NCBI GenBank assembly: GCA_964604135.1
Contig: CAZRXU010000002.1
Location: forward strand, 636 to 64,635
Length of the DNA stretch: 64,000 nucleotides
Direction of reading: 5' to 3'
Source of the DNA: an uncultured bacterium
GTDB lineage: Bacteria > Fermentibacterota > Fermentibacteria > Fermentibacterales > JCC-6
Position 1 is the stretch's first letter, and each line of letters opens with the position of its first letter. The notes under the pieces were generated by a model. It did not search any database. It saw only the letters and a program-made list of their open reading frames with translations, and had not been told where the DNA came from. A program made the position numbers and the translations under genes. Of this stretch, positions 21,082 to 25,537 are shown one piece after another.

Positions 21082-21118
21082 AAAAAAGCAGGCCCGGCGT
21101 GAGCCGGGCCTGCTTTTA
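21082..21118. terminator. Bidirectional rho-independent terminator
   Basis: AGCAGGCCCGGC (21087-21098), loop GTGA, GCCGGGCCTGCT (21103-21114). Flanked by an A-run and a T-run, between convergent genes. Confidence 0.8.
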
Positions 21119-21129
21119 AACACAATGAG

Positions 21130-21480
21130 CTAAAGCACCTGCTCGAGTTCCTTTTTTCTTTTCCGAACCTGAAGGCGCACATTACCAAGACTGGAGTTTA
21201 CAGCAGCAACCACAGCGAGAATGGCATCTTCACCGATAGCGGTCATTACGATTACGCCGTTGGAGTATTCCATCATTGACTGCGTAAGACTACCGACACC
21301 AAGCTCTTTACCAACGCTTTCGGCGGAACCAAGACCTGTGGAAACCATCGCACCTATAGCATCAACATCTGCTCCGGCGCCAGCAACTGCGTCGATAACA
21401 AAACCATCACGGCCAACGCAGACCGCAGCATCTATTCCTGCCACATCCACCAGTGCAGTAAGAATTTCGTTGCTATTCAT
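21130..21480 (-). CDS. Roadblock/LC7 (MglB-fold) domain protein
   Basis: 116 aa. Pattern L..LV.V.G...A.....DG.VI......G.D.D...A is typical of Roadblock/LC7 proteins. Confidence 0.75.
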   Translation of the reverse strand: MNSNEILTALVDVAGIDAAVCVGRDGFVIDAVAGAGADVDAIGAMVSTGLGSAESVGKELGVGSLTQSMMEYSNGVIVMTAIGEDAILAVVAAVNSSLGNVRLQVRKRKKELEQVL

Positions 21481-21585
21481 AAAAAGTCCTTCCTGTTTGA
21501 GAAACTACTAATTCTTTCTACCATAACCCACAGGGAGAGAAAAAAAAAGGCTGCCGCTCCCTGTGTGCGGTTGCCCGGTAAGCCG

Positions 21586-22998
21586 TTATTTAAGGGCCAG
21601 CATGGCAGATTCAATTTTTCCCTGGTCTAGAAAAACTATTGCAAACCTGAGTTTGGCAATCTCAGGGCTGTTGGGATTTTTCTTTTCCAGCTGAGCAATT
21701 CTTCTTTCGGCTGCCAGTTTAAGAGCTTCTATCTGGCTGGTAACTGTTGTTGCACTCTCAATTATGTTGATTGTGTGTTCTCGTGTAGGTGATGCAGTTT
21801 CCACTGCAGGTTTTTCGGGAACAGTTTTCTGCGAAGTGTTTAATTCACTGGTGTCATCCTTTGCTTCCGCAGAAGCTGTGCTGCCAGCCAGCTGTTTCTT
21901 CGCTGCTGTTCCTGATCTTTTCTCTTCGAGAGCCTTTTTGAATTTTTGTTCGTCTGAGTCTGCTGCGTTTTCTTCGTCTTCGATGTCAACAACAATGTAG
22001 GGAGAGGGGGATTTTTCTTCCTGATTCCTGGTGTCTTTGGAAGCTGCTGCCCCCGGTTTACTTTTCACAGGATCCATGAGATTCATGGAATTAAGCAGGC
22101 TTGTTACAGTATCCATAGATATGCCAGTTCTGGAAGGCGAGGCAAGAAGATTTGCAAGAACAGCTCTTCCTGCGGCTTTCAAAGTTCTGATGTTCTGTGT
22201 TATTCTTGTGGCTATGTAGTTGATTATATCAGGACCAGGGCCAAACCCGGTGTTCTTGAACATCCTTTCGAGAACAGACATGCGTCCGGCAATGTCCATG
22301 GGTTTGAGCTCAACCGAAATACCGGAGGAGATTCTGGAAAAGAAAGTAGCATCGAAATCCTGCATGTTTTCCACTTCAGAGTTGGAACACAGAACAATTG
22401 CACTCTTACCGTGAGGCATTCTGTTGAAGACAGAGCAGAGGAAATGCTGAAATTCAATATCTCCGTGCACAAATTGAAGATCATCGAGCAGAAGAAAATT
22501 GTGGCTGGTTATCCATGACAGAAGCGGACTTTCTTTGTTGGTTCTCACGCAGTATTTGTACCCCATCTTAAGATCGTTGAGGTTCAGAAAAAGTGTTTTT
22601 TGTCTGGAAGCCGATGCAATGGCAGAGAGCAGGTGAGTTTTGCCCTGCCCGGTTCCCGCGTGGAACAGAATAGGAGATATACTTTTCCATATTCTGGGAA
22701 TAAGGGCAACTGTGCGGGCGAGTTCCACTGCATAGGAGTTCTCATCGGTTACCACGTAGTTCTCGAATGTTCTGCCGTCCCGGGGGACGAAAGCAAGAAG
22801 ATCTGTGAAGCGATCGCTGTTGTCAGGGTGATCACCAGGGAACGCTGGAATTGCCTCTACGCCTCCCTGATACTTCGCAAACAGGCAAATTTCCCGAGCT
22901 GTGGGTTCAGAGATGTAACCTGAATCAGCACACATCTGCATAAACTCAACAAAATGAAGACGATTTCCGTTGTCAATGGAGTTTGGCTTGTCGGTCAT
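21586..22998 (-). CDS. DnaA-like AAA+ ATPase without DNA-binding domain IV, with an acidic/coiled-coil C-terminal tail
   Basis: FENYVV..N..A......A, Walker A GTGQGKTHLLSAI, Walker B LLLDDLQF, box VII-like FFSRISSG and sensor-2-like QNIRTLKAA are collinear with DnaA domain III. The last 170 aa or so are low-complexity acidic plus a coiled coil. The ATG abuts the upstream stop (TAAATG). Confidence 0.7.
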   Translation of the reverse strand: MTDKPNSIDNGNRLHFVEFMQMCADSGYISEPTAREICLFAKYQGGVEAIPAFPGDHPDNSDRFTDLLAFVPRDGRTFENYVVTDENSYAVELARTVALIPRIWKSISPILFHAGTGQGKTHLLSAIASASRQKTLFLNLNDLKMGYKYCVRTNKESPLLSWITSHNFLLLDDLQFVHGDIEFQHFLCSVFNRMPHGKSAIVLCSNSEVENMQDFDATFFSRISSGISVELKPMDIAGRMSVLERMFKNTGFGPGPDIINYIATRITQNIRTLKAAGRAVLANLLASPSRTGISMDTVTSLLNSMNLMDPVKSKPGAAASKDTRNQEEKSPSPYIVVDIEDEENAADSDEQKFKKALEEKRSGTAAKKQLAGSTASAEAKDDTSELNTSQKTVPEKPAVETASPTREHTINIIESATTVTSQIEALKLAAERRIAQLEKKNPNSPEIAKLRFAIVFLDQGKIESAMLALK

Positions 22999-23757
22999 TT
23001 AATACTCCAACCCGCTGGACTGAAGAGTTCTGGTAAATTTACCGAGTTCGATGGAAAGAACCCCCAGTCTTATACCGTGAGGAACAAAAATTACAGCAGT
23101 ATGCGTTTCGTTCAGGGCTGAAAGAGCCAGGGTGTATTCAGCGTCTTCAATAAAGGTTTTGCCAACAGATCTCTCAGGATAGTCTCGAATAAAACTTTTT
23201 ACTGCTTTAAGAATGGGTTTAATTTTATCAATAAAATCTGCATCAGCTTCAGCTTCGGCCACGATCTGACCTTCTGAATTAACAATGTATGCAATCTGAA
23301 TAGATGACGAAATATTCATAACCGACTCGGGAATGCGAATGGGATTCGGCAGAGCAGCTTCTGCAGCCTTCACCGCCGCTGCCTGCAGTGCCGCCGCTTC
23401 AGCCAGTTTTTGAGCCCGCTCTCTCTCGGCCTGTTCCTCTTCGAGCTTCTTCTTTTCATCTCTTTCTTTCAGTGCCCACATGAGATTGTTCTGCAGATCC
23501 TGTTTGATGGATACTTCCTCTGAAGTGGCACTGGAGTCAAATGTAAAATCTCCCTCGGTCCAGTCGATTACCTCAACCAGAACATCCTTGCCGATTATCT
23601 CTCCCAGTTTTGCGTGGATCAGCTTACCCTTGTTGTAGAAAAACTCAGCGGTACTTTCTGCCCGCTCCAGAATCAGTTTTCCGCTGAGATGATTGGTGCC
23701 AGGCAGTTGAAGCAGCGCAACAACGCCAAACTCACTAAGGTTGCCATTGAAGGCCAT
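22999..23757 (-). CDS. PATAN/DUF4388-domain protein with coiled coil and a Roadblock-like C-terminal domain
   Basis: N-terminus GNLSEFGVVALLQL.....SGKLILE......FFYNKGKLIHA.....G.DVLVEVIDWTEGDFTFD is the DUF4388 pattern. EEQAERERAQKLAEAAALQAAA forms the coiled coil. Confidence 0.8.
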   Translation of the reverse strand: MAFNGNLSEFGVVALLQLPGTNHLSGKLILERAESTAEFFYNKGKLIHAKLGEIIGKDVLVEVIDWTEGDFTFDSSATSEEVSIKQDLQNNLMWALKERDEKKKLEEEQAERERAQKLAEAAALQAAAVKAAEAALPNPIRIPESVMNISSSIQIAYIVNSEGQIVAEAEADADFIDKIKPILKAVKSFIRDYPERSVGKTFIEDAEYTLALSALNETHTAVIFVPHGIRLGVLSIELGKFTRTLQSSGLEY

Positions 23758-23787
23758 AAACTATGCGGCTCCTTTCATATATCAGCG

Positions 23788-24378
23788 CTACTGAATCAGC
23801 TGGAAGTTTTTTATAACTTCCTTGCTGATCAGCTGGAGTGTTTTCATTACCCCGGAACCCTTTGTAGCTACAGATTCCGTTACAAGAACACTTTCAGGAA
23901 GCTCCAGAATCTTCTCGATCTTTCCCAGTGGTATTACATCCTGGAAATCTCTCTTGTTGTATTGCAGTACAATGGGGAAGGTATTTGTGTCTACCCCGAA
24001 ACTGCCGAGATTTGCAAGCATCCTTCTGTACATTTCTATGTTTTCATTAAGCTTTTCTGTTTTGGAATCTGCCACAAAAACCACACCGTCGGCACCCTCC
24101 AGAATAATACGTCTGCTGGCCTCGTAGTATATCTGCCCTGGTATGGTGTATAGGTGAATTTTCAGAGAAAACCCCTGAATCGAACCTAGTGATACAGGAA
24201 AGAAGTCGAAGAAAAGCGTTCTTTCCTCTTCTGTGTCAAGTATTACCATCTCACCCTTGTACCTGTCAAAAATCTTCTTGTGAATAAACAGAAGATTTGT
24301 TGTTTTTCCGCTCATACCGGGACCGAAATAAACAATTTTAAAAACCAGTTGTTTGTTATTCAGGTCGAGGTGAGGCAT
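23788..24378 (-). CDS. mglA: MglA-like Ras-superfamily small GTPase
   Basis: P-loop GPGMSGKTT, G3 YTIPGQ (MglA-type TxPGQ) and G4 YNKRD. 196 aa. Overlaps the upstream Roadblock gene. Confidence 0.85.
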   Translation of the reverse strand: MPHLDLNNKQLVFKIVYFGPGMSGKTTNLLFIHKKIFDRYKGEMVILDTEEERTLFFDFFPVSLGSIQGFSLKIHLYTIPGQIYYEASRRIILEGADGVVFVADSKTEKLNENIEMYRRMLANLGSFGVDTNTFPIVLQYNKRDFQDVIPLGKIEKILELPESVLVTESVATKGSGVMKTLQLISKEVIKNFQLIQ

Positions 24379-24874
24379 CTTCTTCCTCTCCTATTACAAA
24401 GATACGATCGATCAGGTTTAGAGCGTACTCTTTGAAATCGGGTATGGAAATGTCTTGCATCGCGTCTTTCTGGTCTTCTCTGTCTTTGTTGATAAGCCGG
24501 ACAAGCAGAGGGCTGCTCTTTTTTGCAGCAAGCCTTACCCTGCCTATTCTTGAATAATCTTCAAAAACGATAACCATCATAGACTTGTCGCCAATAAGGG
24601 AGATGTGAATGTGTCGCTTCTCTCCCTGCTGGAGAAGAATAGAAAACTGCTCTTCGCCTACGATGTTAGCCACTTCCTTGGTTGCCGAAAACATTCCGGC
24701 GACAAGAGCAGCCAGGGCAGTTGAGTTTAACTTTGCTCCACCGCCTGCCTGCCCCAGGCAGATACCGTGTCTGCTTATGAGTAGAGCAGTAAGTGCCTCA
24801 GTTTTCTCGACAAGATCGCCAAGGACTTCATTGATAGACAACCCGTATCTTTCATCAACTGCTGATTCAGTCAT
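24356..24874 (-). CDS. mglB: Roadblock/LC7 protein, MglB-like partner of the GTPase
   Basis: Roadblock pattern L..LVEKTEAL.ALLISRHG.CLGQAG. Start placed at ATG 24874 (MTESAV...). Its 3' end overlaps the mglA start by 23 nt. Confidence 0.7.
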   Translation of the reverse strand: MTESAVDERYGLSINEVLGDLVEKTEALTALLISRHGICLGQAGGGAKLNSTALAALVAGMFSATKEVANIVGEEQFSILLQQGEKRHIHISLIGDKSMMVIVFEDYSRIGRVRLAAKKSSPLLVRLINKDREDQKDAMQDISIPDFKEYALNLIDRIFVIGEEEDASPRPE

Positions 24875-25069
24875 GGGCCCCCCTTGTGCTGAAAAACATA
24901 CATTCAATTATTCAGACAAGATGCCACCGTGTCCAGTGCTGCAGTTTAAAGCAGGTAATCAAATGCCAGTCATTTCTCAAAGGAATACTCCCTGTACAGT
25001 TTTGTTGAACACAGTTGTTTGCAATAATTCACATCTTCTTCCCCCGGCTGCACGACAGGCACAAACGGT

Positions 25070-25537
25070 TTATCCCTGTATACCAACAAGCTGGAGGTGA
25101 ATAAGAGAAGCTCTTTCCCCTTCAGGTGTTATCTCTTTAATTCTTGTTTTTACGCCGAGATTCTTTTCGCACAGAGCAACGGCAAGCCCCGCAAACGGGC
25201 ATGCAAATGGAGGGATACCCTCTTCTTTCAGCCCCTGGGTTAGTTCCCAGAAAGAACACCCGCTTACATGCAGCTTGAGAGATTCGCCATCACGCTCAAA
25301 CGAGATGTCATCGCAGAAACCAAGTTCCTTTGTGAGTTTTCCCAGGTTCTCTTCAAGAACACTGATGTCGCTGGAGTCAAGGCCGTTGATCCCAAGAGCT
25401 CCAAGTCCGGCCAGCATATCCGGTCCCGCCTGTCTCATAACTGCAGCGGCACCGCCGCCAACTGCCCGGTGAAGCGCTTTTGTGAATGCGTAAAGTAGAG
25501 CGTTTGTTCCCAGCCGATCGATCTTTTTCGGGGCCAT
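25070..25537 (-). CDS. V4R-domain-like small protein
   Basis: Cys-containing pattern HVSGCSFWE....ACPFAGLAVALCE..LG resembles V4R (4-vinyl reductase) domains. These are known to co-occur with Roadblock/MglA-type modules. Confidence 0.5.
   Translation of the reverse strand: MAPKKIDRLGTNALLYAFTKALHRAVGGGAAAVMRQAGPDMLAGLGALGINGLDSSDISVLEENLGKLTKELGFCDDISFERDGESLKLHVSGCSFWELTQGLKEEGIPPFACPFAGLAVALCEKNLGVKTRIKEITPEGERASLIHLQLVGIQG

Follow-up and report, generated by a model that had tools for sequence, protein, structure and literature searches.

MglA and MglB form the best-studied bacterial small-GTPase polarity switch, in which MglB regulates MglA, and we know of few partners described for this pair outside Myxococcus. 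Roadblock domains, the fold of MglB, dimerise and stack, as in MglB-MglC and in Ragulator, whereas AAA+ proteins of the initiator clade assemble through an arginine finger into open spirals; one relative of the latter, Hda, is a short protein of ~230 aa with an N-terminal clamp-binding motif. Here, we describe a locus at which these families meet. A 64,000-nucleotide stretch of an uncultured Fermentibacterota genome (the whole of which we call the window) contains, at positions 21130-25537, six co-directional minus-strand genes for an MglA-family GTPase, an MglB-like protein, a PATAN-Roadblock adaptor, a separate small Roadblock protein, a protein of family PF27323 and an AAA+ ATPase derived from DnaA. 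This module is real and conserved, since its gene set recurs in two distant phyla, and our search of the literature turned up no paper that describes it as a whole.

The closest described counterpart is the MglA/MglB module of Myxococcus xanthus and Thermus thermophilus, together with MglC, RomR-RomX and RomY. Both encode an MglA with all catalytic motifs and an overlapping mglB for a Roadblock fold with a C-terminal extension; the additional Roadblock paralogues of the window recall MglC, and PATAN genes are known neighbors of mglA and mglB (PMC4316618). In contrast to the Myxococcus and Thermus systems, no gene for RomR/RomX, RomY or an SgmX-like TPR effector is present among the module genes and the neighbors shown, and the window module includes an AAA+ ATPase that is obligatory and derived from DnaA, a fusion of PATAN with Roadblock, and a PF27323 protein. 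It is also accessory, occurring in 60% of the phylum, with matches to sigma-54 promoters in one phylum.

Operons of an MglA-family GTPase with Roadblock proteins are likewise found in conservons (CvnA-D) and in archaeal clusters, where V4R/TRAPPC3-type proteins are grouped with Roadblock proteins and small GTPases (PMC10933270). The small Roadblock protein of the window is closest to CvnB. However, the window has neither a sensor kinase (CvnA) nor a DUF742 protein (CvnC), its GTPase appears to be MglA proper rather than a member of the conservon group, and no AAA+ partner is noted for either kind of cluster in the literature found. PATAN and V4R domains were described by the initial annotation, a first reading of the window's DNA, as known associates of Roadblock/MglA modules, and this is in print in the two papers cited above. 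It further held that a DnaA-clade ATPase within such an operon had not been described; in agreement, our literature search returned no publication that joins DnaA or DnaA-like proteins with MglA, Roadblock or PATAN.

Composition of the module

All six open reading frames lie at the coordinates and on the strand that the initial annotation had reported (Table 1). The 23-nt overlap of mglB and mglA that it described follows from their coordinates (24356 versus 24378), and the TAAATG junction of PATAN stop and ATPase start is present in the sequence. The host is a metagenome-assembled genome (MAG) of Fermentibacterota (2.66 Mb, 94% complete, 182 contigs) that is Candidatus Sabulitectum-like; close homologs of the window proteins carry the names Candidatus Sabulitectum or Fermentibacteria. 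Scans with Pfam and NCBIfam label five of the six genes, the exception being that for the 155-aa protein.

The ATPase matches PF00308 (Bac_DnaA) with 77.4 bits over residues 77-305, which bears out the earlier assignment of a DnaA-like AAA+ ATPase in the operon and confines the likeness to DnaA domain III: neither domain I (PF11638) nor domain IV (PF08299) is matched in a Pfam scan. Domain III is preceded by an N-terminal helical domain (residues ~12-45) and followed by an acidic disordered linker, which carries the motif SPYIVVDIEDEE, and by a C-terminal helical bundle (~406-470). In the predicted structure, the AAA+ core is modeled with a pLDDT (predicted local distance difference test score) of ~70-90 and has a two-helix insert between beta2 and beta3 (E135-139, H140-152, H156-164, E168-172), like the initiator-specific motif. 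Its fold matches are DnaA domain III structures first and Hda next. Invariant across the ATPase family in both phyla are the lysine of Walker A, the DD of Walker B, the arginine of box VII (the arginine finger) and that of sensor II, and the protein retains the residues that binding and hydrolysis of ATP and contact between subunits require. The stretch that aligns with GKE-TQEEF of Bacillus subtilis DnaA, which we take to hold basic single-strand DNA-contact residues in other DnaAs, reads GD--FQ-F in the family.

The host genome also has a genuine DnaA, encoded on a different contig and 26% identical to the window ATPase. Full-length homologs of the ATPase form a discrete family at 38-87% identity, with a sharp drop to true DnaA at 26-27%. 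We computed a maximum-likelihood tree of the operon-linked ATPase family (24 rows) together with true DnaA and with DnaA-domain proteins of tandem, TPR-, MshEN- or DUF835-linked architecture. The family is split from all of these with 100/100 support, and its Fermentibacterota members form a clade (100/98) whose branch lies among those of the wider family. Judged by its domains and phylogeny, the ATPase descends from DnaA domain III, has lost domains I and IV and has gained N- and C-terminal helical domains of its own.

By the same evidence it is neither DnaA nor Hda. Shared with DnaA domain III and Hda are the AAA+ fold, Walker A and B, the box VII and sensor II arginines and the two-helix insert, and shared with Hda is the lack of domain IV. 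In contrast, at 470 aa it is about twice the size of Hda, has unique terminal domains, shows no motif of the clamp-binding type, scores below the cut-offs of both curated models (139.7 against 343.9 for DnaA, TIGR00362; 75.5 against 194.8 for Hda, TIGR03420), forms a separate and fully supported clade, and is encoded in a GTPase operon instead of with replication genes.

Two further assignments within this family were considered and rejected. Relatives with an MshEN-DnaA architecture prompted the idea that the N-terminus of the ATPase is an MshEN/GspE_N domain, a cyclic di-GMP-binding domain; PF05157 is unmatched up to an E of 10 in both the protein and the six-frame search, and hhalign gives an E of 0.15. 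A C-terminal Roadblock fusion that was noticed by eye in one relative (P0101) is not significant by hhalign and was not used. The representative search also returned DnaA domain III in many non-initiator architectures, namely tandem DnaA-DnaA, MshEN-DnaA (up to 1990 aa), TPR-DnaA and DnaA-DUF835, which group with true DnaA in the tree. The linker motif SPYIVVDI(D/E)-E-E (residues ~330-345) is invariant in Fermentibacterota members of the ATPase family and absent from those of Thermodesulfobacteriota type; the motif may serve as a docking peptide.

The full length of the GTPase can be aligned with T. thermophilus MglA (3T12; 203 bits), and it scores 184 bits against M. xanthus MglA. Relative to 3T12, it keeps the P-loop GPGMSGKTT, the switch-I arginine segment TEEERTLFFDF, YTIPGQ and NKRD, and we regard it, on these motifs, as a catalytically intact MglA-family GTPase. 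Its neighbor matches PF03259 (37.6 bits) and, in a PDB search, solved MglB structures (5.6e-15), and reaches 70.8 bits against the NCBIfam equivalog for MglB (NF052242), below the cut-off of 200. This protein is a divergent MglB and the predicted partner of MglA of the GTPase-activating protein type. The start of mglB is probably the ATG at 24874, which is preceded by the Shine-Dalgarno-like run AAGGGGGG, rather than position 24907, where the reading frame as listed begins.

The adaptor begins with a DUF4388/PatA_N domain (PF14332; 57.9 bits against a gathering cut-off of 25). At its C-terminus, no Roadblock domain is matched by Pfam, hhalign gives a weak result (E 0.04), and PDB sequence searches, with the adaptor as with the 155-aa protein, return noise only. 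An AlphaFold model built from an alignment of 15 orthologs (pLDDT 82.6) displays the PATAN domain, a helix of 45 residues (88-132) and an alpha-beta-beta-alpha-beta-beta-beta-alpha domain at ~140-250, with the Roadblock topology spanning residues 144-247. All of the top 50 PDB fold matches to this last domain are Roadblock/MglB/LAMTOR or dynein light-chain entries, and the model thus assigns it a Roadblock fold, in line with the PATAN, coiled-coil and Roadblock-like arrangement noted initially. Together with MglB and the small Roadblock protein (PF03259, 55.5 bits), the module then has three Roadblock-fold proteins, one of them by model. The small protein is of a generic type, nearest to CvnB and Asgard Roadblocks; its best PDB match is CvnB5 (3LEQ, 3.5e-08).

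No Response_reg match is found in the adaptor by Pfam, and hence it is not a PatA-type response regulator. In Synechocystis, such PATAN-REC regulators have a PATAN domain that binds the N-terminal domain of PilB1 (bioRxiv 10.1101/2021.06.11.447907). As in that system, PATAN would here serve as an output or adaptor domain near an ATPase, itself predicted to be oligomeric, and loci of the Desulfomonile type (described below) have a REC-PATAN gene just upstream. The window adaptor differs in that its PATAN domain has a coiled coil and a Roadblock domain as fusion partners and not REC, and the neighboring ATPase is an AAA+ protein of DnaA type with no match to the MshEN model, not a secretion ATPase of PilB type. 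Solo paralogs of the adaptor, 34-37% identical, are present in two genomes (L094, G015:C19; L095, G021:C9) with no MglA, MglB or ATPase gene nearby.

The 155-aa protein had been labeled V4R-like. The Pfam V4R model (PF02830), which does detect true V4R proteins elsewhere in the host genome, leaves it unmatched in both the protein scan and a six-frame search of the genome, and neither the NCBIfam nor the Pfam copy scanned, the latter without PF27323, contains a match. All 19 of its 19 homologs carry PF27323, "RdxA_C." When compared by hhalign with the profile of 19 V4R proteins of the phylum, it aligns colinearly but weakly over 119 columns (E 0.055). True V4R proteins, moreover, adjoin the module in at least seven sister genomes, and also in L009. 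On these grounds the V4R label is plausible but unproven. We consider the protein a candidate ligand- or metal-binding input subunit. The V4R genes of sister genomes (Table 1) occupy places that correspond to where the window has its PF27323 gene, and the two may represent a functional swap between these genomes.

Conservation in Fermentibacterota and recurrence in a second phylum

We collected 18 related loci (L006-L023) from metagenomes and 14 species-representative genomes, including Sabulitectum, Aegiribacteria and Fermentibacter daniensis. The order MglB-MglA-PATAN-ATPase is found in every fetched locus of Fermentibacterota type that spans the region, down to an ATPase identity of 35%, and a small Roadblock ortholog accompanies each of the 18 loci, either upstream or downstream of this core or on both sides. 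Where the core is uninterrupted, the stop codon of the PATAN gene overlaps the ATPase start or is separated from it by at most ~15 nt, and the two genes are predicted to be translationally coupled. In one lineage (L006:4896-5937 and L007), a transposase of the ISL3 family is inserted exactly between them, which disrupts this coupling but leaves both frames open.

Among 70 genomes of the phylum, 42 encode the ATPase, 43 the PATAN adaptor and 40 both. In these 40, the two genes share a contig, and the listed pairs are directly adjacent. Only two of the 42 ATPase-bearing genomes are without a PATAN gene, both cut by contig ends; among all single-gene cases, three are at contig ends and two are the solo adaptor paralogs. 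Because it is present in 42-43 of 70 genomes, jointly and adjacently, the module is accessory and gained and lost as a unit. The initial annotation had staked its reading on synteny of the ATPase gene with mglAB in related genomes, and the order is kept throughout the 18 loci, as is the adjacency in the phylum tally.

In 10 of the 18 loci, the module is followed in the same orientation by a [NiFe] hydrogenase cluster, which is found neither in the window and its clade nor in the loci from Thermodesulfobacteriota. It lies ~1.5 kb downstream of the ATPase gene (listed for L006-L009, L014, L016-L019, L021 and L022) and comprises genes for a 163-aa protein of unknown function, a small subunit, a HoxH-like large subunit, a ferredoxin and Hyp/HycI proteins.

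A profile search of 1.84 billion representative proteins revealed a wider ATPase family with the same architecture, in which the N-terminal helical domain, DnaA domain III and a conserved C-terminal helical bundle are combined with a variable linker. Its named members are Thermodesulfobacteriota, among them a Desulfomonile tiedjei MAG. The survey of neighborhoods for co-occurrence of the ATPase with mglA and Roadblock genes, which had been proposed at the outset, finds all six genes in this second phylum: L090/L096, L098, L099, L100, L118 and L119 each contain them in the order MglB-MglA-PATAN-ATPase-RdxA_C-Roadblock. The proteins of L090 are 29-57% identical to those of the window, and in the loci of this phylum a PF27323 homolog, 46% identical, is encoded between the ATPase and the small Roadblock protein. 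Within Thermodesulfobacteriota, the ATPase family occurs in only 4 of 301 sampled genomes, which argues that the set moves as a block. Inheritance, loss and transfer across at least two phyla affect the gene set as one unit. Variants exist as well. In L091:4756-7203, mglA is missing and the PATAN gene directly follows that of MglB, with the ATPase and small Roadblock genes retained; L092 is without RdxA_C, and L093 and L101 are divergent.

Upstream of the module, L090, L118 and L119 each carry a gene for a REC protein, one for a REC-PATAN protein and a pair of the histidine kinase/NtrC type, whereas the upstream genes of L092 include a REC-PATAN gene together with one that is ParA/MinD-like. 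The exact sigma-54 consensus TGGCAC-N5-TTGCT precedes the first REC gene in L090 and L118, and with one mismatch in L119. No such consensus is present upstream of the window's genes. These promoter matches of the Desulfomonile-type loci may help to establish under which conditions the system operates.

A joint GTP and ATP switch and its alternatives

We read the six genes as one conserved signaling module in which a GTP switch and an ATP switch are joined on Roadblock platforms, with a likely polar output, and hold the chances of this reading to be about even. It is suggested by the conserved gene order, by the intact motifs of both NTPases, and by the precedents of MglB, Roadblock, PATAN and initiator-clade proteins. 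MglB would set the GTP/GDP state of MglA, and the Roadblock domain of the adaptor would pair with the small Roadblock protein or stack on MglB, in the manner of MglB-MglC and Ragulator, to form a platform for the GTPase. The PATAN domain of the adaptor would hold the ATPase, paralleling the position of PATAN on the N-terminal part of the pilus ATPase PilB1. Once bound to ATP, the ATPase could self-assemble through its arginine finger into an open oligomer, acting as a second, ATP-timed switch or scaffold rather than as a DNA-binding initiator. Inputs might come from the PF27323 protein or, in sister genomes, from the true V4R proteins, and in Desulfomonile-type organisms from response regulators under a sigma-54 two-component system. 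The output would be the placement or activation of a polar envelope machine. The concept resembles SofG-BacP of M. xanthus, where an MglA-like GTPase and a self-assembling protein place pilus ATPases at the pole; the candidate polymer here would instead be a nucleotide-dependent AAA+ protein and not a bactofilin, and any likeness would be functional only.

This scheme develops the proposal of the initial annotation that the locus is an expanded NTPase-switch system coupling a small GTPase to an ATP-dependent oligomerizing protein. Retained synteny and invariant ATPase motifs speak for the proposal, and we infer the oligomerization and the physical coupling of the module proteins. The module defines a fixed set of partners for MglA and MglB (the PATAN-Roadblock adaptor, the small Roadblock protein, the PF27323 protein and the DnaA-derived ATPase) that travels as a block between phyla, and would present a defined, testable complex for biochemical and structural work. 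It would also represent a replication-initiator ATPase fold re-used outside replication, and a bacterial parallel to the eukaryotic Roadblock platforms, such as Ragulator, through which GTPases are connected with other machines.

As output, we consider a polar machine such as type IV pili most likely, and this is at the same time the weakest step of the scheme. PilT is present in all 70 genomes of the phylum and PilB-like ATPases in the host genome; with PilT universal, co-occurrence with pili cannot discriminate. Several observations weigh against this scheme. The 40% of Fermentibacterota that are without the module all have PilT, and pili hence do not require it. In none of the loci is a gene for pili or motility part of the module or its neighbor, the hydrogenase cluster that directly follows in 10 of 18 loci might indicate a different output, and the carrier organisms are uncultured. 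Of two further MglA paralogs in the host genome, one is slightly closer to canonical MglA than the window copy, which therefore need not be the polarity GTPase. Finally, neither terminal domain of the ATPase has a match in any known family, and its model is of low confidence in the N-terminal part.

A bolder version of the same scheme, which we regard as unlikely, is that a clade of ATPases copied from DnaA has been re-used, off DNA, as the ATP-driven partner of a Ras-like GTPase, with Roadblock dimers and the PATAN adaptor coupling the GTP switch to an ATP-dependent, self-assembling filament or spiral, yielding a two-nucleotide spatial oscillator or landmark of a kind undescribed in bacteria. 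In its boldest form, this oligomer would talk to DnaA and tie polarity to replication initiation.

Direct action on replication is a separate alternative, and in our estimate an improbable one. The ATPase could function as an Hda-like regulator, offering its arginine finger to DnaA-ATP or capping a DnaA filament, so that the module couples polarity or another signal to initiation. Its nearest relatives in sequence and fold, the invariance of its box VII and sensor II arginines and the loss of domain IV, as in Hda, are all consistent with such a role. However, the family falls short of the Hda model by the margin given above and forms a long-separated clade, no motif of the clamp-binding type is seen by eye in the aligned N-termini, and the presumed DNA-contact segment of DnaA is replaced by GD--FQ-F. 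Furthermore, the ATPase is missing in 40% of Fermentibacterota and in ~99% of sampled Thermodesulfobacteriota, and in none of the loci seen does it adjoin dnaA, dnaN or an origin.

To a similar degree, we doubt that the module is a sensory regulator of metabolism or gene expression with no part in polarity, in which V4R/RdxA_C-type and Roadblock proteins gate the GTPase and ATPase to control, for example, hydrogenase or a sigma-54 regulon. Regulatory roles are known for the actinobacterial conservons, which are themselves MglA/Roadblock modules (PMC4316618), and the downstream hydrogenase genes, the adjoining V4R genes of sister genomes and the histidine kinase, NtrC-type activator and sigma-54 promoters that flank Desulfomonile-type loci would all fit. 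Yet neither the clade of the window nor the other phylum shows the hydrogenase link, which may hence reflect inherited gene order only. The conserved core, moreover, has no DNA-binding or enzymatic output domain, and a sigma-54 system explains the expression of the operon more simply than its function.

Much less probable still is a mobile conflict system, for anti-phage defense or similar, as the patchy distribution, the apparent transfer between phyla and the presence of an AAA+ ATPase might suggest: PADLOC models are negative except for a marginal P-loop match of 15.9 bits, the core has no nuclease, toxin, protease or membrane effector, all components come from signaling or polarity families, and the flanking genes are not defense islands. 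That the DnaA-like gene stands beside mglAB by chance is refuted by its adjacency across two phyla and dozens of species, by translational coupling and by joint presence and absence, and we give this virtually no weight.

Signals in the DNA and MglA paralogs

Patterns resembling a sigma-70 promoter and a terminator are found around the module (Table 1), in a region where scans for such patterns return numbers of sites not above the expectation from shuffled sequence.

Table 1. Positions of the module genes, of nearby sequence patterns and of related features in other loci
Feature	Location	Strand	Basis or remark
PF27323 "RdxA_C" protein, 155 aa	25070..25537	-	open reading frame; homologs carry PF27323
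MglB-like Roadblock/LC7 protein with C-terminal extension, 183 aa	24356..24907	-	PF03259, PDB MglB matches
MglA-family small GTPase, 196 aa	23788..24378	-	alignment to solved MglA
PATAN/DUF4388-coiled coil-Roadblock adaptor (C-terminal domain by model), 252 aa	22999..23757	-	PF14332 and model
DnaA-derived AAA+ ATPase, 470 aa	21586..22998	-	PF00308, domain III only
Single-domain Roadblock/LC7 protein, 116 aa	21130..21480	-	PF03259
Sigma-70-like promoter match just upstream of mglB	24907..24935	-	TGGACA-17-AATAAT, 10/12 matches, pattern only
Terminator-like hairpin GGCTCACGCCGGGCC followed by T-run TGCTTTTTTC, 25 nt past last gene	21091..21105	-	pattern only
Sigma-54 sites	L090:2680-2695; L118:3606-3621; L119:3606-3621		between NtrC-type activator gene and first response-regulator gene
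V4R genes (XylR_N + V4R) near module	G056, G057, G059, G043; G061, G066, G068		first four divergent upstream; last three downstream, two to three copies
Non-initiator DnaA-domain proteins	P0095, P0097, P0102, P0104, P0144, P0172, P0176, P0217		representative search; group with true DnaA in tree
MglA paralog regions	L004:1483-3515; L005:134-2067		host genome G000, contig C1

The two MglA paralogs of the host genome are each 45% identical to the window MglA, and neither has an mglB beside it. One abuts a gene for a 476-aa protein whose N-terminus is weakly similar to the C-terminal domain of L7/L12, and the other directly follows a gene for an HslU/ClpX-like AAA+ protein.

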